A DNA stretch of 64,000 nucleotides, from assembly GCA_048268245.1 (NCBI GenBank), contig JBLWVX010000002.1, positions 96,001 through 160,000 on the forward strand, read 5' to 3'. Positions 35,523-48,969 of this stretch are shown here, piece by piece. The position numbers were made by a program, and so were the translations under genes. How positions within the stretch are numbered: position 1 is the first letter of the stretch; every line of letters begins with the position of its first letter. The DNA is from Arcobacteraceae bacterium (GTDB taxonomy: Bacteria > Campylobacterota > Campylobacteria > Campylobacterales > Arcobacteraceae). The notes below the pieces were generated by a model that saw only the letters and a list, made by a program, of their open reading frames with translations, made no database searches and was not told where the DNA came from.

Positions 35523-35532
35523 GCTTTTATAC
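35509..35532. terminator. Palindrome between convergent genes
   Basis: GTATAAAAGCTTAAGCTTTTATAC. Confidence 0.6.
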
Positions 35533-36183
35533 TAATTTCGTCTCTTTGTTTAAACTATAACCTAAACCTTTTACACTTAAAATTGCCTCATTAAAAAGCT
35601 TTTTTCTCAGTCTTTTTATCATAGCTCTAATATTAGTTAGATTTGTATCTTCACCTTCCCATACATATTCATAAATTTCTTCATAATTTGCTATGTGATG
35701 AAGATTTTTAGAAAACATTTCTAAAAACAAAATCTCTTTTTTTGTAAGTTCAATTTCTTCATTGTTTTTATACATAATTCTATTTTTAAAATCATATTTT
35801 AAATTTTCATTAAATTGCAAAAACATTTTTTCAACTCTGCAAAGTTTCTTTACTTTTTGTACTAATTCAAAAATATAAAAAGGTTTTTTTATATAATCAT
35901 CACATCCTAAATCATAAGATTTTTGAATCTTCTCAAAATCATGATTTGAACTAATTATAATTACAGGAATATCTTTATGATTAACTCTTAATAGTTCCAA
36001 AAGTGAAATACCATCAATATTTGGAACATTTATATCTAATATAAAACAAGAGTAACCATTTTCTAAACTTTCAAGTGCTTCTTGTCCATCTATAAAGGTA
36101 TCCACATTATAAGACTCTTTTTCAAGAGAACTCTTTATTAAATTAAGTAATCTTTCATTATCTTCTAGTACTAAAATCTTCAA
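35527..36183 (-). CDS. OmpR-family response regulator
   Basis: Receiver domain (LED, ILDINVP, KPF) plus winged-helix domain (IKRLRKKL, GLGY). Confidence 0.96.
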   Translation of the reverse strand: MKILVLEDNERLLNLIKSSLEKESYNVDTFIDGQEALESLENGYSCFILDINVPNIDGISLLELLRVNHKDIPVIIISSNHDFEKIQKSYDLGCDDYIKKPFYIFELVQKVKKLCRVEKMFLQFNENLKYDFKNRIMYKNNEEIELTKKEILFLEMFSKNLHHIANYEEIYEYVWEGEDTNLTNIRAMIKRLRKKLFNEAILSVKGLGYSLNKETKLV

Positions 36184-38360
36184 TCTACATACTCCAAAAT
36201 AATTTCAAATAATGCTCCATTTTCTATGTTGCTTGCTTGTAGTTTTCCATTCATTTTATCTTCAATTATCATTTTTGCCATATAAAGCCCTATTCCATGT
36301 CCCTCTTTTTTAGTAGAAAAATAGGCTTTAAATACTCTCTTTAAAGCTGCTTTCTTAATTCCACCTGCATTATCTAAAATTTGTATTTTTAGGTTTTTAT
36401 CTTCATTTAAAATATTAATTCTTATAAGTCTATCATCAAAATCTTTTTTTATCAACTCATCTTTTGCATTGTTTATTATATTTAAAATAGCTTGCATAAA
36501 CTCATTTCTAAAACCTAGTACTTTTAAGTTTATATCTTTACTATAGTTAAATTCAAGCTTTATATAATTATATTTTATATTATGATTTACAATTTTTAAA
36601 AGTTCATCAATTGCCAAACTTACATCAAAAACTGTTTTTTTATTTGAAGGAATCATAAAATTTTGAAAATCATTAATTGTTTTATTCATATATTCAACTT
36701 GTGTCATGATGTCTTTTACATAAGATTCATCTTCATTCTTTTGGGTTGAAGAAGAATAAAAACTCTCTTGAGCAATTGTAGTTATTTCAACAAGTGGAGA
36801 TTTCCATTGATGGGCAATTGAAGAAAAAATTTCACCAATTTCAGCAAGTTTTGATTGCTGAATTATAAACTGCTGGTTTTTTTGTCTTTCAATTTCAGCT
36901 TTTTTCTCTTTTGTAATATCTGTAAGAATGGTAACTGTACCTGTTTTTTTAGTCTTACTATCACAATAAGTAGTTTGTTTAATAAAATAAATTTTTTCAT
37001 CAATACTTGTAACTTTTAATTTAAAAGAAGAGTGTTTCTTTGAGTTTTTTTGATACTTTAGTAAGGCTTTTTGAACTATTTTTACACTTTCATTATCATA
37101 AAATTCATCTAATCTCTTATTGTAAATATGACTTTTTTCAATATTTATAATATTACAAAACATCATATTTGAATCTAATATTCTTCCCTTTTCATCTTGC
37201 CAGAATATTGGACTTTCAATTGCATTTAGTAATACTTCATCAAAATCTATTCTTTGTCTTAATTTTTTTTGAGTATTAACTCTCATATAGATATTATGTA
37301 TTAAAGCTAAAATTAAAAATATCAACAAAGGAAAAATTATAAAAACAAAATTTATAAAAACACGATGTTTATCAAAAAAAGTCAACCTTTTGTTTATAAG
37401 CTCATATTCTTCTTTTAACTGAGCTATTGCAATAGTAAATTCATTTAATTTTTTTGAGTCAAAAACATAAGAAAAGTCATCAAAAACTTCAACTCTTTTT
37501 ATCTCTTTATTAGTTAGTATATCTAAAGCCATAAATCCAGATTGAGTACCAAATTTCTCTAAATCTACTATCTTTCCACCAATTACTCCACTATATTTAA
37601 ATACTGAATCTGTAATAAAAATAGGAACTTTAGAGTGATTTATAAATTTTGAGATTTCATAGTTTTTATTTAGCGTGCCATCACTATTTTTGTAAAACCT
37701 TATAAATAAAACTGCACTATTATTTTCAGCCTTAGAAAATCTGTTTTTCAAACTATCTAGATTATCTTCTTTTAAATAAATAAGATTATATCTTCCCGTA
37801 AAATCTGAAAATAGCTCTTTTATCAAAGGCTCTGTATGTGTTGCATTTATACTTTTATCATTTATTATATATAGATTTTTGATACTTGGAATAATACTTT
37901 CAACTAATTTTATATTAGCCTTTAAGTCTCTTTTTTCAAGTAAAGCCCAAACTTTTTTTTCTAGACCTTTTTTTATAAGTTTTTCTTGTAAAAAGTTTTC
38001 AATTCCAACTGTAAGAATTTTTGTTTTGCTAAATAGTTCACGATAAGAATCAACTATAAAATCATATGCAAATCTGTCTATTGTAATAACTAAATCATAC
38101 TTTCTAGATTTTAACTGTACTTTATAGAGATCTTTTAAACTCTCACTATATTCTTTTGAAGTTATTCTTTTTGAGTCCATATATAAAACATTTATATCTA
38201 AATTAGTGTGTTTATAAAAAACTTTTTCAATTGATTTTACAATATCATCACTCCATTTATAGCCTTTATGGTAAGAACTTATTATCAAGATATTTTTATT
38301 AATTGAATTTGAGAAAAGAAAAGTTGTGAAAATTAAAAGTAGAAATAGAGTTTTTTTCAT
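36180..38360 (-). CDS. Sensor histidine kinase with periplasmic substrate-binding-like domain and PAS domain
   Basis: Signal peptide, TM, IAHQWKSPL H-box, NIINNAKD, DNAGG and GHGIGL boxes. Confidence 0.95.
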   Translation of the reverse strand: MKKTLFLLLIFTTFLFSNSINKNILIISSYHKGYKWSDDIVKSIEKVFYKHTNLDINVLYMDSKRITSKEYSESLKDLYKVQLKSRKYDLVITIDRFAYDFIVDSYRELFSKTKILTVGIENFLQEKLIKKGLEKKVWALLEKRDLKANIKLVESIIPSIKNLYIINDKSINATHTEPLIKELFSDFTGRYNLIYLKEDNLDSLKNRFSKAENNSAVLFIRFYKNSDGTLNKNYEISKFINHSKVPIFITDSVFKYSGVIGGKIVDLEKFGTQSGFMALDILTNKEIKRVEVFDDFSYVFDSKKLNEFTIAIAQLKEEYELINKRLTFFDKHRVFINFVFIIFPLLIFLILALIHNIYMRVNTQKKLRQRIDFDEVLLNAIESPIFWQDEKGRILDSNMMFCNIINIEKSHIYNKRLDEFYDNESVKIVQKALLKYQKNSKKHSSFKLKVTSIDEKIYFIKQTTYCDSKTKKTGTVTILTDITKEKKAEIERQKNQQFIIQQSKLAEIGEIFSSIAHQWKSPLVEITTIAQESFYSSSTQKNEDESYVKDIMTQVEYMNKTINDFQNFMIPSNKKTVFDVSLAIDELLKIVNHNIKYNYIKLEFNYSKDINLKVLGFRNEFMQAILNIINNAKDELIKKDFDDRLIRINILNEDKNLKIQILDNAGGIKKAALKRVFKAYFSTKKEGHGIGLYMAKMIIEDKMNGKLQASNIENGALFEIILEYVD

Positions 38361-38383
38361 AAACTTATTATAGTAAGTTTTAT

Positions 38384-38412
38384 AAAAATAGCACCTTTAT
38401 TGGTGCTATTTT
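38384..38412 (-). terminator. Intrinsic terminator after the DASS transporter gene
   Basis: AAAATAGCACC-N6-GGTGCTATTTT. Confidence 0.85.
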
Positions 38413-38414
38413 AT

Positions 38415-39827
38415 TTAAAGAATAATGAAGCATAAAAGAACTAATGAAGCCAAGAATATTGCTCCAAATATTGCTCCTAATTTCCACCATGTTGCTTGTG
38501 AAATATATCCAGCACCATACCAAATTGGTGAAGGCCCTGTAGCATATGGAGTAATAATTCCCATAAGTCCAAGTGAACCAACTAATAATATCGCTAGTGA
38601 AGGTACCATTTCAGCAGGAATTAAATTCATACCAATTCCTAGAAAAAGTGGTAAAAGTGCAACTACATGAGCTGTAACACTTGCAAATAAATAATGGAAT
38701 AAGAAGAATAATGATACAAGTATAATCACTATGTTTACAGGATCAACACCTGCTAACCAACTTGAGATTAAACCTGCTGCCCATTTTAAATATCCAACTT
38801 TTTTAAGACCACTTGCCATTGCAACTAATGTTGCAAACCAAATAAATACATTGATTGCTGCTTTATTTGTAATCACATCTTCCCAGTCAATAACTTTAGT
38901 TAAAACAAGTAAACATAAAACTACTAAGGCTGCAACTGTTCCATTTATACCTATTGCTTTTCCAAAAATCCACATAACTAAAGCTAATATTCCAAGACCT
39001 AACATAATTAACTCTTTTTTAGTTATAGGTCCTATATTTTCAAGCTCTTTTGCTGCCCATGCTGGAGCTTCTGGTGAAGTTTTTTGTTCAGGTGGATACA
39101 CTAAATATGTGATGTAAGGAACAAGTAAAAATAGTGGTACCATAATTAGTGCAAGAGTACTAAACCACTCTCCCCATGAGATCAAAATACCTGTGTTTTT
39201 TTCAACTAATGATACTGCTAATAAATTTGGTGCTAAAGCTGTTAAGAACATAGAACTTGTAACACAAGTTGCTGCAATTGCCACCCATGAAATGTATGCC
39301 CCTAGTTTTCTTGGTTCATTTTCAGGAGTAGAATTAAACATTTGTGGAATATTAATAGCTATTGGAAAAATAGTTCCTGCACTTCTTGCTGTGTTTGATG
39401 GCATAAATGGTGATAATATACCATCTGCAAAAGCAATAGCATATCCTAAACCAAGTGATGTTTTACCTAAGGCTTTTACTAAAAGTAAAGCAATTCTTTT
39501 TCCAAGTCCTGATTTTTTGTACCCTAGTGCAAACATAAATGCTGCAAAAATTAACCAGATAACTCCATTTGAAAAACCACTTAAAGCCCAATCTCTATTG
39601 GCTTTAGCAGTTTCACCTACTAATCCAAAAGCGGCACTAAATGAAACCCCAATTAGACCTATTAAGGCTGCTGGAATTGGCTCTAAAATAAGTGCAACTA
39701 TTACACCTAAAAATACTGCGAAGAAGTATTGTGCGTTAACACTTAAACCTTCTGGTGTTGGTATTATTGCAACAATAATTGCAACAATAATTGGTAATGC
39801 TATTTTAAAAGTCTGACTTTGAAGCAT
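38415..39827 (-). CDS. DASS family di/tricarboxylate transporter (CitT/TtdT-like)
   Basis: PSNTAR, SSMFLTALAPN, HYLFASVTAH and TPYATGPSP motifs. Confidence 0.95.
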   Translation of the reverse strand: MLQSQTFKIALPIIVAIIVAIIPTPEGLSVNAQYFFAVFLGVIVALILEPIPAALIGLIGVSFSAAFGLVGETAKANRDWALSGFSNGVIWLIFAAFMFALGYKKSGLGKRIALLLVKALGKTSLGLGYAIAFADGILSPFMPSNTARSAGTIFPIAINIPQMFNSTPENEPRKLGAYISWVAIAATCVTSSMFLTALAPNLLAVSLVEKNTGILISWGEWFSTLALIMVPLFLLVPYITYLVYPPEQKTSPEAPAWAAKELENIGPITKKELIMLGLGILALVMWIFGKAIGINGTVAALVVLCLLVLTKVIDWEDVITNKAAINVFIWFATLVAMASGLKKVGYLKWAAGLISSWLAGVDPVNIVIILVSLFFLFHYLFASVTAHVVALLPLFLGIGMNLIPAEMVPSLAILLVGSLGLMGIITPYATGPSPIWYGAGYISQATWWKLGAIFGAIFLASLVLLCFIIL

Positions 39828-46509: not shown

Positions 46510-47025
46510 ATGATTAAGTCTATAATTTTTATTTCTCTATGTTTATTTTTTATAACTGGATGTTCATATAAAACCGGTTCACAAGAATTTATAAGTAGCT
46601 ATAAAGAGTTAGATAATCTTCCTTTTCCTAGTGCTTCACTTGAGCATACTCTACTTGAAACAAACAATCAACTAAAAAGATTTTATAATGAGTGGAGAGG
46701 GGTTAGATATAAATGGGGTGGAAATACTAAAAGAGGTATTGATTGTTCTGCTTTTGTTCAAAAGGCCTATAGAAATAGTTTTAATTTAAAACTTCCAAGA
46801 ACTACAAAATATCAACATAAAGTTGGCAAATACATAAATAAAAGCTCTCTTAGACTAGGAGATTTAGTCTTTTTCAAAACAGGATGGGACTCAAGACATG
46901 TGGGTATTTATATAGACAATGGAAGATTTATGCATGCATCAATAAGTAAAGGGGTAATTATTTCTTCTTTAAATAATAGGTATTATAAAAAGCACTATTG
47001 GAAAGCAAAAAGAGTTTTATTTTAA
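46510..47025 (+). CDS. NlpC/P60 (C40) peptidoglycan endopeptidase lipoprotein, MepS/Spr-like
   Basis: Lipobox ITGC; YKWGG, DCS, GDLVFF, HVGIY and FMHAS motifs. Confidence 0.95.
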   Translation: MIKSIIFISLCLFFITGCSYKTGSQEFISSYKELDNLPFPSASLEHTLLETNNQLKRFYNEWRGVRYKWGGNTKRGIDCSAFVQKAYRNSFNLKLPRTTKYQHKVGKYINKSSLRLGDLVFFKTGWDSRHVGIYIDNGRFMHASISKGVIISSLNNRYYKKHYWKAKRVLF

Positions 47026-47080
47026 ACACTAATAAAAAAAGGATAGGATGTAAGATTAATCTAATTTTAGAGGAGTACAT

Positions 47081-47429
47081 CTGATAAGAAACTTATCATT
47101 TTTTATTTTTATAACACTTTTTTTAGTGCATGTAATAGCACTAAAACACTTACATATAAAGAAACAACTAACGAAAATATAAACAAACAAATACAAGCAT
47201 TAAAACAGTTTGAACCAGAACCAAAAAAGAAATGAACCTTCTGCAAGCTAAACTTAAAGAAGAGATTCAAAAAGAAGAAATACAAAATCAATTAAATAAT
47301 GATGAAATCATCAAAAACTCTTTAATAGAGTTTTATGCTGAATGGAAAGGTGTAAAATTCACAAAACTAAATAAAGCTTTTTATAAAAAGGCTTATTGGG
47401 CATCAAGAAGACTTATCAAAGATTTATAA
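47081..47429 (+). pseudogene. Decayed NlpC/P60 lipoprotein paralog
   Basis: AGGAG RBS plus CTG start; lipobox FSAC out of frame after a T-run; second frame break near 47230; FYAEWKGVK fused directly to LNKAFYKKAYWASRRL with the catalytic core missing. Confidence 0.8.
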
Positions 47430-47430
47430 T

Positions 47431-47634
47431 ACAAAAGCCTCAAAGTTTTAATTATGTTTAGGAGAAATGAGTTCATTTTTACTTACTACTCTTAATATAA
47501 AAATAAATGTGATTAAAAGAGTAATACAAATGAGGCTTTTAGTAATTTGAGTAAGTTAATGAGATAAATGCACTTAAATTTATAATTTAGGAAGCAGAAA
47601 GGATACAAATGAGAAATGCATCTATCTCTTTAAT
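47431..47634 (-). ncRNA. Candidate structured small RNA with C/U-rich anti-SD loops
   Basis: Minus-strand TATAAT at 47641-47646; two long-range stems (47433-47442/47531-47540 and 47561-47572/47617-47628); repeated motifs complementary to SD+AUG. Strand and ends are inferred. Confidence 0.5.
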
Positions 47635-47649
47635 ACTGTAATTATAATC

Positions 47650-47668
47650 TACAAATATGATATTTGTA
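47650..47668. promoter_or_regulatory. 19-bp palindromic operator candidate
   Basis: TACAAATAT-G-ATATTTGTA. Confidence 0.55.
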
Positions 47669-47676
47669 TGATTTTA

Positions 47677-48969
47677 TTACAATTTTATGAAATTTGATAA
47701 AATATATAGACAAATTACCCCTATAATATACATTTTTAGAACATATAAAATATTGGCTTTAAAAATATCTTTTGCATTTAAACTATATCTAGCAACAATT
47801 GTAAGGTTCAATCCACTAAATGGTGAGGTTGAAACTGTAGTAGCCCAAGCCATCAAAAATGTCACAGCTAATAGTGTATGATTTACAGAACTTAAAAACT
47901 CACCAATAATTGCTATTGTAATAATAGGATGAATTCCCACAAAAGCTAAAACTATAAAAATAGCTAAAAGAATTGAAGCTATAAACCAATCAAACTCTTC
48001 AAAAGGAAGTGTTAATTCCAATCCTAAAAGTATTGAACTAACAGAAATACCAAACATTCCAGCTATTAGAAAAAGAGAAAGTTCTACTTTCATTTTTGGT
48101 AATTCTTCAAAGATATGATTTACTATTTTACTACTAGCTTTATTTAAACCTTTTTTTATAGGTAATACTAAAATAGTTAGTAAAAATGAAAATAGTGAAA
48201 TTAAAACAATCACTTTAATTTGAGGATAAAAATGATTTGTTACTAAAACTAAGATAGCTAGACAAAAAGGTAAAAGTAAAGTATCAAAAGCCATGGGATA
48301 ACCTCTAAATTCATCCAAATTAAAACTTTTATCTTTATTCACTTCATAGTATGTAAACAAAAATGCTATAAAAGCTAATATTAGTCCATTTACCAAAATC
48401 ACACCTGCATTTAAATTTGGAGCATAAGTTAAAGCTGCTGCAAAAGCTACAAAAAAAGGTGACCAGTAAGCATCTGTAGAAAAAGCTCTTGTAAGTAAAA
48501 CTATTTGAGTTTTTGTAAGTTTTGCTTTTTTATGTAATTTGTCTGCTACTAAAATTAAAGAAGACAAATTTATTACAGAACCAAACAAATGAACTCCAAG
48601 ATATGTTTTTAAAAAAGATTGCTTGCCTTTTGGTAAATTTGTACTTTTATCTTTTTTAGGAGTTGCTATTAATCTTAAAAAACCAACTCCAATTAAAAGA
48701 GTTAGTAAGTATTGGTTTACAGTAAAGACTTTTATAAAATCAATGCTAAAACCATAAAAAAAACAAATAGCAAATGCAATAAAACTTAAAAGTAAAAGTA
48801 TGTTTAACATCTTTTTACTTTTTAAAGATGTATAAGAAAAACCAAGTGATAGCCAAGCTAAAGTACCAGCAACAATCAATAGTGAATTATCAAAAAAATA
48901 TGCTATAAAAGTTATAAAAAATGATGAGAAAATTAATATCCCGCTTAAATTTGATAATACTCTATTCAC
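47677..48969 (-). CDS. Uncharacterised multi-pass membrane protein (possibly ion-transporter superfamily)
   Basis: About 12 hydrophobic segments; YWSPFF motif; overlaps the upstream DMT gene. Confidence 0.7.
   Translation of the reverse strand: MNRVLSNLSGILIFSSFFITFIAYFFDNSLLIVAGTLAWLSLGFSYTSLKSKKMLNILLLLSFIAFAICFFYGFSIDFIKVFTVNQYLLTLLIGVGFLRLIATPKKDKSTNLPKGKQSFLKTYLGVHLFGSVINLSSLILVADKLHKKAKLTKTQIVLLTRAFSTDAYWSPFFVAFAAALTYAPNLNAGVILVNGLILAFIAFLFTYYEVNKDKSFNLDEFRGYPMAFDTLLLPFCLAILVLVTNHFYPQIKVIVLISLFSFLLTILVLPIKKGLNKASSKIVNHIFEELPKMKVELSLFLIAGMFGISVSSILLGLELTLPFEEFDWFIASILLAIFIVLAFVGIHPIITIAIIGEFLSSVNHTLLAVTFLMAWATTVSTSPFSGLNLTIVARYSLNAKDIFKANILYVLKMYIIGVICLYILSNFIKL

Follow-up and report, generated by a model that had tools for sequence, protein, structure and literature searches.

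A candidate minus-strand small RNA of Arcobacteraceae with a conserved loop complementary to the yjcH-actP ribosome-binding site

We have analyzed an intergenic gap in a 64,000-nt stretch of DNA (hereafter the window) that corresponds to positions 96,001 to 160,000 of contig JBLWVX010000002.1 (assembly GCA_048268245.1), from an Arcobacteraceae bacterium; positions given below are those of the window unless another contig is named. The gap probably encodes a previously undescribed, trans-acting and Hfq-independent small RNA (sRNA), read from the minus strand, which would act on the Shine-Dalgarno sequence of yjcH-actP and would be subject to lactate-linked control. In this proposal, an OmpR-type regulator would activate the sRNA promoter through a direct-repeat box. 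The transcript, predicted to start near 47634 and to end near 47425 (about 205 nt), would fold as one long hairpin displaying a near-invariant CU-rich loop, UCCUUUCUGCUUCCUAA, and the loop would pair with the Shine-Dalgarno region of the mRNA of yjcH-actP, which encodes a DUF485 protein and an acetate permease. Such pairing would block ribosome binding and translation initiation, and acetate uptake and activation would then be lowered while lactate is used. Conservation, strand, structural covariation, non-coding character, sharing of a promoter motif and target complementarity with co-variation are read directly from the genomes compared; the transcript itself, the repression of the target, the identity of the regulator and the signal that it senses are what we infer.

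Organization and conservation of the minus-strand element

The gap is 247 bp long and lies between two convergent frames, a 65-aa open reading frame (ORF) on the plus strand that ends at 47429 and a 430-aa ORF on the minus strand that ends at 47677 (stop codon at 47677–47679). Its sequence is single-copy in the genome. An earlier note on this DNA had listed a series of stems, repeats and motifs within the gap, and all of them are present. AAAAGCCTCA (47433–47442) pairs perfectly, 10 out of 10, with TGAGGCTTTT (47531–47540). The arms of a second stem, 47556–47575 and 47614–47633, are 85% complementary, and its 12-nt core (47561–47572 and 47617–47628) has a single A·C mismatch on the plus strand, which corresponds to a G·U pair on the minus strand; an inner stem, TACTACTCTT/AAGAGTAATA, shows 90% complementarity. 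Two exact copies of ATACAAATGAG are found, at 47524 and 47603, and two of TTTAGGA, at 47457 and 47586. AATGAG occurs four times on the plus strand within 148 nt (47466, 47529, 47558 and 47608), with 47 occurrences on both strands of the whole window and about 0.1 expected in the gap. A TATAAT sequence is located on the minus strand at 47646–47641. The fold of the minus strand is much better than that of shuffled sequence (z = −7.0, a value that none of 200 shuffles reached), and the fold of the plus strand is weaker (z = −3.7); the organization of the gap is therefore far beyond chance. Comparison with relatives indicates that this organization is also conserved, and suggests that the gap is composed of two minus-strand modules of different age, an old and conserved core on the right and a genus-limited 3′ extension on the left. 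The gap had been interpreted in the earlier note as one sRNA unit. The minus-strand sRNA stands, whereas the single unit gives way to a core plus an extension found in one genus only.

Forty relatives were searched first, followed by 184 genomes of the family with BLASTN and by 151 genomes of the family with a covariance model (genera are labeled here g1, g3 and so on). Among the 40 relatives, the whole 256 nt are conserved at 84–93% identity in three species of the same genus, and only the right half (approximately 47576–47680) at 78–83% identity in further species, two of them from other genera. The BLASTN search (E ≤ 1e-3) yielded matches in 49 of the 184 genomes, the long ones in g1 (5/5), g6 (10/11), g18 (2/2) and g10 (22/44); single matches in the remaining genera are short fragments. 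The covariance model, which was built from 30 sequences, identified one copy each in 27 of the 151 genomes and added the genus g19, the carriers being the genome of the window along with 5/5 of g1, 10/11 of g6, 7/22 of g10, 2/2 of g18 and 2/3 of g19. Two more carriers were found by direct search of their loci. The core sRNA is present in five of the 22 genera of the family. It spans 47556–47634 on the minus strand, is matched by the covariance model, occurs in one copy per genome and shows 78–98% identity across g1, g6, g10 and g18. At 37 of 37 loci, the core element is located directly behind the gene of a 430-aa membrane protein and on the same strand, and at most of these loci an EamA-family gene lies upstream of the 430-aa gene.

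The anatomy of the core was read on the minus strand from an alignment of the 37 homologues. The first element is a direct-repeat box with an 11-bp period, ATCATAcaaatATCATA (47656–47672, minus strand), a putative site for an OmpR-type regulator. Its consensus, A(A/T)(A/T)ATCATA-N5-ATCAT(A), begins 4 nt past the stop codon of the 430-aa gene. ATCATA-N5-ATCAT is exact in 33 of the 37 homologues, and the four others show one mismatch each. The box ends 9 nt upstream of a −10 box, TATAAT (47641–47646, minus strand), which had already been noticed as pointing into the gap; in 36 of the 37 homologues TAnAAT occupies the same alignment columns, 9–10 nt after the direct-repeat box. From the geometry of this promoter, transcription is predicted to start at 47632–47636 (minus strand), about 6–8 nt after the −10.

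About 14 nt after the −10 box there begins an outer stem of 12 bp that encloses approximately 50 nt. Its arms read, in the RNA, GAGAUAGAUGCA on the 5′ side (47617–47628, minus strand) and UGCAUUUAUCUC on the 3′ side (47561–47572, minus strand). In the alignment, 91% of the cells of this stem are paired, versus 35–51% when the partner columns are slid; two-sided, compensatory changes are seen in seven of the 12 pairs, and the covariation score was reached by none of 500 column shuffles. Read on the minus strand, the stem contains 47 G·U cells against 10 A·C cells, and the RNA is therefore placed on the minus strand, the only one that the G·U pairs fit. The minus-strand RNA proposed in the earlier note thus has on its side a stem that covaries, G·U pairs of the right polarity and a conserved −10, and the stems and CU-rich loops whose conservation that note had suggested checking in relatives are both conserved in the core homologues.

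Within the outer stem, the minimum-energy fold includes an inner helix, the 5′ side of which, AUUUGUA (47604–47610, minus strand), pairs with UAUAAAU (47578–47584). About 88% of its cells are paired and just one pair shows a two-sided change, which argues weakly for this helix. It closes the apical loop UCCUUUCUGCUUCCUAAAU (47585–47603, minus strand), which is unpaired in the minimum-energy fold and is the candidate main seed; the loop stretch UUUCUGCUUCCU is kept in 34 of the 37 homologues. Directly behind the outer stem, 25 of the 37 homologues have four or more U residues in a row. With this run behind the stem, the hairpin is read as an intrinsic terminator in those homologues, so that the core hairpin would double as terminator in most genera. 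The genus of the window is among the 12 without a U-run behind the outer stem.

No reading frame is conserved on either strand in the species compared, and the element is non-coding. A 10-aa frame on the plus strand is broken by a 1-nt indel in four of eight species, and a 27-aa plus-strand frame preceded by AGGAG is 27, 21, 15, 11 and 30 aa long in the five species that carry it. On the minus strand, an ATG frame located in the stem runs into indels, or else the ATG is absent. At the level of sequence, the element has the parts of a transcription unit: box, −10 and stem plus U-run, completed in the genus of the window by the left-module terminator with its compensatory changes. It is situated at the 3′ end of a same-strand protein gene and has its own predicted promoter 4 nt past the stop codon at the 37 loci; sRNAs that are associated with the 3′ end of a gene and have a promoter of their own are of the DapZ/MicL type.

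Complementarity of the apical loop to the acetate genes

When the start regions of this genome were scanned with the loop as a query, yjcH2 ranked first and pta fourth of 1929. Both genes share one acetate cluster of 9.5 kb, comprising yjcH1-actP1, yjcH2-actP2, the genes of a DUF294/CBS protein and of an exonuclease, pta and ackA. AGGA[AG]GCA is present in just 10 of the 1929 start regions, three of which belong to the acetate cluster. In the cluster itself (contig C1:42149–51605 of the same genome), yjcH-actP is duplicated in tandem.

GGAAGCA, the complement of UGCUUCC, is found in the yjcH start region of 31 of 36 sRNA carriers. This count is the sum of 16/16 in a first set, which includes G060, where the sRNA was shown by direct locus search, and 15/20 in a second set. 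Of the five exceptions, three can still pair via G·U, two with GGGAGCA and one with AGGAGGCA; the other two belong to g19. Among non-carriers, yjcH start regions lack GGAAGCA: it is absent in 14 of 14 genomes of g3, g11, g17 and g20, and from 19 of 19 start regions of 16 species of g10. Genome G077, also of g10 and the single apparent exception, was left out of the latter count, the locus of its 430-aa gene and sRNA being cut by a contig end.

In g19, the loop has diverged to GUGUGUCCUUUCUAUAUCAUAA, and in three of three genomes the yjcH start region is a perfect complement of the g19 loop, over 23, 21 and 22 nt, which span the Shine-Dalgarno sequence. The loop and the yjcH start are the only two matching sites in each g19 genome, and loop/yjcH pairs taken across genera reach at most 8 nt. 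As judged from the sequences, this joint change of loop and yjcH is the only independent co-variation event, and it can be regarded as a natural compensatory-mutation experiment with two partners. The apical loop most likely targets the ribosome-binding site of yjcH-actP (acetate permease). The anti-Shine-Dalgarno action of CU-rich sequences that had been envisaged in the earlier note agrees with a loop that is complementary to the yjcH ribosome-binding site and co-varies with it in g19. One of the seeds proposed there, CUCAUUUGUAU, lies partly inside the inner helix, and the apical loop UCCUUUCUGCUUCCUAA is the better supported seed.

The loop would probably also pair with the Shine-Dalgarno region of pta(-ackA) in many species. 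The pta start region contains GTAGAAAGGA, which can form 13 bp, one G·U included, with GUAUCCUUUCUGCU. GTAGAAAGGA is present in the pta start of 18 of 29 carriers, in none of 19 genomes of other genera, and in one of 18 sRNA-lacking genomes of g10, which is G077. As a target, pta is a weaker case than yjcH.

Other candidate targets were discarded. Neighboring genes did not provide any convincing pairing, and the longest exact match, a 15-mer at contig C40:4971 of the same genome, corresponds by rough estimate to about chance expectation. A second match to the loop pattern, CCTTTATGCTTCCTA, lies inside the coding region of a transporter and is unrelated. We also observed that TTGCTAT-N4-TTGCTAT repeats precede by about 10 nt the −10-like boxes upstream of yjcH2 and pta, as well as of yjcH in one g19 genome; the repeat has the appearance of a box through which another regulator would activate the acetate genes.

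The promoter box and the lactate-utilization genes

The exact pattern ATCATA-N5-ATCAT-N9–11-TAnAAT is found in 86 of the 184 genomes, at about 130 sites, and the reversed-pattern control at about 15. The recurrent class other than the sRNA is the promoter of the TRAP dctPQM operon, in nine genera, both in carriers and in non-carriers. When one mismatch is allowed, the genome of the window contains six sites, three of which, with the same box, spacing and −10, are those of the sRNA, lutA and dctP. In two other genera (loci G007 and G024), boxes are located before lutA, before dctP and before a gene of the fused FAD/Fe-S D-lactate-dehydrogenase type, and between these boxed genes there are encoded a kinase of about 730 aa, with a periplasmic ABC_sub_bind-type domain and a PAS domain, and an OmpR-type regulator. 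The same lutABC-kinase-regulator block exists in the genome of the window, with 68% identity for the kinase and 78% for the regulator. Two direct repeats with an 11-bp period that end about 10 bp before the −10 are the classic layout of OmpR/PhoB-type activator sites, and the pho-like box of this genome follows this layout with another hexamer. Taken as a whole, gene content and motif sharing suggest that the sRNA belongs to a lactate-utilization regulon and that the box is a putative site of its OmpR-type regulator.

Four alternative assignments of the box or its regulator were rejected. The Fur-like site of this genome, TGATACTAATTATCA, lies upstream of C1:181887 (TonB-dependent receptor), and the sRNA box shares with it one half-site only. 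The pstS-type gene at C4:24662 (PBP_like_2, phosphate-binding-protein type) has instead a pho-box-like GTAACC-N5-GTAACC, 10 nt before TATACT. A similar TTCAT repeat lies upstream of a CusRS-like two-component system (contig C6), which was set aside because of its distribution: genera that lack the sRNA have close orthologues, and several carriers have none. Finally, the kinase/regulator pair encoded in the window itself (35527–38360) is a mere paralogue of the lactate-cluster pair, with 32 and 47% identity, respectively. The latter pair forms part of a minus-strand segment (35527–39827) in which an ABC_sub_bind-type sensor kinase and an OmpR-type regulator stand beside a transporter of the Na+/sulfate-symporter family (DASS), and it may sense another organic acid.

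Further occurrences of the box were noted. In g13, the ATCATA-N5-ATCAT box is found in three genomes and a variant of it in a fourth; at locus G170 (box at about 2977, minus strand) it precedes an operon of a 405-aa Fe-S protein and a hybrid-cluster-protein-like gene, the latter judged by its N-terminal sequence alone, and the regulon may therefore differ between genera. At contig C24:13062 of the genome of the window, a one-mismatch box with correct spacing to TAAAAT lies before a 365-aa HdrB-like Fe-S gene, a possible regulon member. Just downstream of the box-controlled dctPQM there is a gene of the D-lactate-dehydrogenase type (946 aa; C8:73631), the start region of which, AAAGGATACAAAATG, includes a 12-nt exact complement to the sRNA stretch UUUGUAUCCUUU; this may represent a feedback target or chance.

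A broader version of the proposal can be put forward only tentatively, and we would not presume that it is right. In it, a two-component system sensing lactate (or a related 2-hydroxy acid) would drive an sRNA that shuts off both yjcH-actP and pta-ackA, seed and target would have co-evolved, and the second module would recruit further targets. If this were true, Arcobacteraceae, a family that includes food- and water-borne opportunists as well as abundant sewage and marine bacteria, would have an RNA-based hierarchy of carbon sources, with lactate over acetate and without Hfq. The locus would represent a complete circuit, from sensor kinase and regulator to box, sRNA and the ribosome-binding site of the acetate permease operon, and would be an example of an sRNA gaining a new 3′ module.

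The 3′ extension, rival explanations and known sRNAs

The left module (47431–47555, minus strand) is present in the window and, within the genus, in four of the five further species. In G010 and G022, two species that belong to other genera, 47438–47561 is missing and the flanks abut. In two species, the outer stem of the left module (47433–47442 with 47531–47540) shows a double compensatory change, from GCCUCA/UGAGGC to GCCCUA/UAGGGC; UUUUGUAUUAU comes after this stem. This compensatory stem and the sequence behind it suggest that the left module replaces the lost terminator. The 3′ arm of the terminator stem, UGAGGCUUUU, and its U-rich tail occupy 47425–47442 on the minus strand, and the pairing with 47531–47540, complete as described above, together with the compensatory changes agrees with the earlier expectation that the RNA would end in a stem plus U-run. 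In the genus of the window, the U-run of the core would have been lost, and the 125-nt extension would bring a new terminator and a second anti-Shine-Dalgarno stretch.

This second conserved CU-rich stretch, ACUCAUUUCUCCUAAA (47457–47472, minus strand), is mostly unpaired in the fold. Its anti-Shine-Dalgarno part, ACUCAUUUCUCCU, is invariant in five of five species with the left module and is likewise largely unpaired. A target scan of the genome with the left module gave nothing coherent, acetate genes ranking 79th or lower. Of the several seeds that had been claimed for this RNA, the apical loop is best supported, whereas the second stretch found no coherent target in that scan. The idea that the left module is a duplicate of the core was also discarded: the local alignment scores 24, the shuffled mean is 23.2 and 218 of 500 shuffles score as high.

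Alternative explanations have to be weighed against the trans-acting sRNA. There is a small chance that the element is merely the cis-acting 3′ end of the 430-aa gene, a hairpin that would terminate or stabilize its mRNA and have no function in trans. The location of the element is what such a hairpin would have, since it stands on the same strand directly after the stop codon at 37 of 37 loci, with no other terminator in between, and 25 of the 37 homologues have the U-run after the stem. However, a terminator does not need a near-invariant 19-nt loop (34/37), nor a conserved box and −10 of its own, common to lut and TRAP promoters, and the match to yjcH over 21–23 nt, altered along with the loop in g19, would be left unexplained. 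If the sRNA is real, read-through from the upstream gene may also feed it, because no terminator separates the two.

It is very unlikely that the RNA is instead the 5′ leader (attenuator or riboswitch) of an AEC-family transporter gene, of which the window would keep a relic. At 21 of the 37 loci, in g6, g10, g18 and g19, an AEC-family gene (Pfam Mem_trans) does lie on the same strand about 45 nt past the U-run, and there it occupies the position of the left module. Nevertheless, the RNA is unchanged at the 16 loci that lack the gene, including those of all six species of the window's genus. Moreover, a conserved TACAAT −10-like box separates the U-run from the AEC start in five of five loci inspected, so that the AEC gene can have its own promoter; it is on account of this box, and of the persistence of the RNA where the gene is absent, that we consider a leader role unlikely. 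No alternative antiterminator pairing was seen, and the AEC homologue of the window's genome lies elsewhere, without such a leader. We also consider very improbable a functional RNA on the plus strand, in which copies of the yjcH start region and GGA motifs would act as a decoy for a protein such as CsrA. AGGAG, AGGAAG and AAGGAT motifs and a TATAAT at 47581–47586 would suit this explanation, and the co-variation with yjcH is symmetric between complement and identity. But the stem mismatches are A·C on the plus strand and G·U on the minus strand (the 47 versus 10 cells mentioned above), the plus strand folds worse, the minus strand is the one on which box, −10 and U-run are oriented, and the inner helix, taken as its complement, accounts for the plus-strand TATAAT. 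Hardly credible, lastly, is a type I toxin-antitoxin system or small-protein gene, with the 27-aa plus-strand ORF (47467–47550, AGGAG 5 nt upstream) and an antisense RNA. It would be in keeping with the good Shine-Dalgarno sequence and ATG of the plus strand, with the long-range stems and with the antisense promoter; against this explanation, the ORF varies in length as described among the five module-bearing species and its middle is frame-shifted, the module is absent from G010 and G022, the two directly compared species of other genera, and in half of the eight species the indel disrupts the right-module ORF of 10 aa.

As a side observation, (T/G/A)TACAAT is located between the U-run and the AEC start codon in four genera (loci L048, at 1626–1669, L055, L062, L065 and L072) and is probably the −10 of the AEC gene. 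The window keeps a degenerate copy of this box, TTACTAA, at about 47541–47547 on the minus strand.

Several points weigh against a trans-acting repressor under lactate control, in addition to the location of the element at the end of a same-strand gene. Four RNA-library runs over the region consist of low-depth contigs, without strand or ends; one 1043-nt contig, from one RNA library of one study, covers 47200–47617 and ends there, and as it is strandless it was not used. When the 1929 likely start regions of the single genome were scanned for duplexes, the energies did not surpass those obtained with shuffled seeds (best −19.4 versus −18.6 to −23.9). Presence or absence of the yjcH motif follows lineages, and the counts are thus confounded by shared descent. 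Complementarity to the minus strand is identity to the plus strand, so that a plus-strand mimic of yjcH is excluded by the strand evidence only. With respect to pta, the site is missing in 11 of the 29 carriers, and there is no obvious benefit in repressing this gene while lactate is consumed. Box and regulator are linked by gene neighborhood in three genera, and lactate is deduced as the signal from gene content.

The RNA did not match any described family, as the earlier note had anticipated: an Rfam 15 cmscan of 46900–48100, both strands, with E up to 10, produced nothing better than E = 1, and all hits were far below gathering scores. The literature searched did not reveal any sRNA reported from Arcobacter, or any that acts on actP, with the reservation that the supplements of PMC6429828 could list the region unnamed. 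In that study, to judge from its accessible text, 38 intergenic regions of Arcobacter sp. L were examined and most were left unnamed (Stav et al., 2019; PMC6429828). On the basis of these comparisons, the RNA would represent a new family within a known kind of sRNA, and the circuit proposed for it is specific and testable. No Hfq gene was found in the genome of the window (99.3% complete), in agreement with the Hfq-less sRNAs already known from Campylobacterota.

The closest parallels come from such Hfq-less relatives. In Campylobacter jejuni, CJnc190 represses translation of a target by means of a C/U-rich loop and without Hfq. The likeness lies in this loop; targets and genomic context differ, the comparison having been made by Rfam scan only. 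The C/U-rich loop used by RepG of Helicobacter pylori doubles as its terminator loop, an arrangement that the core hairpin shares in most genera. Unlike RepG, which targets the tlpB G-repeat, the RNA described here would target the Shine-Dalgarno sequence of yjcH-actP; it is unrelated to RepG in sequence and structure, there being no Rfam match better than E = 1, and has in addition a box for a regulator as well as, in a single genus, a second module. RepG is an sRNA of an Hfq-less member of Campylobacterota that pairs with an mRNA leader (PMC8295292, accessible text). An antagonist RNA was not seen at the locus studied here. Among enteric sRNAs, SdhX represses ackA, and the link to acetate metabolism and the location at an mRNA 3′ end are its likenesses to the RNA presented here. 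SdhX (RybD) is Hfq-dependent and is cut from the 3′ end of its parent mRNA by RNase E (PMC6393394, accessible text). The RNA of the window, in contrast, has its own conserved promoter and no sequence relation to SdhX, and resides in an Hfq-less genome. In Escherichia coli, a carbon-sensing transcription factor (CRP) controls Spot 42, an Hfq-dependent sRNA that represses genes for the uptake of less preferred carbon sources. Only the logic proposed for our RNA would be similar; the regulator is CRP rather than a two-component system, Spot 42 is Hfq-dependent and its sequence is unrelated.

As to the neighbors of the element, the gene directly upstream of it (47677–48969, minus strand; same strand at the 37 loci, with its stop codon 4 nt before the box) encodes a 430-aa multi-pass membrane protein, close relatives of which are called "tellurium resistance protein TerC" in public sources. 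This name looks unsupported, since the protein did not match any Pfam or NCBIfam model, TerC included. On the other side, the match of the 65-aa plus-strand ORF (47232–47429) is restricted to the last 30 or so residues of a second NlpC/P60 paralogue, of which relatives have a full-length version, and upstream of it there is a short, lipoprotein-signal-like frame that ends in an ATGA overlap. Both frames together (47084–47429, plus strand) have the appearance of an NlpC/P60 lipoprotein gene that has decayed to a remnant.

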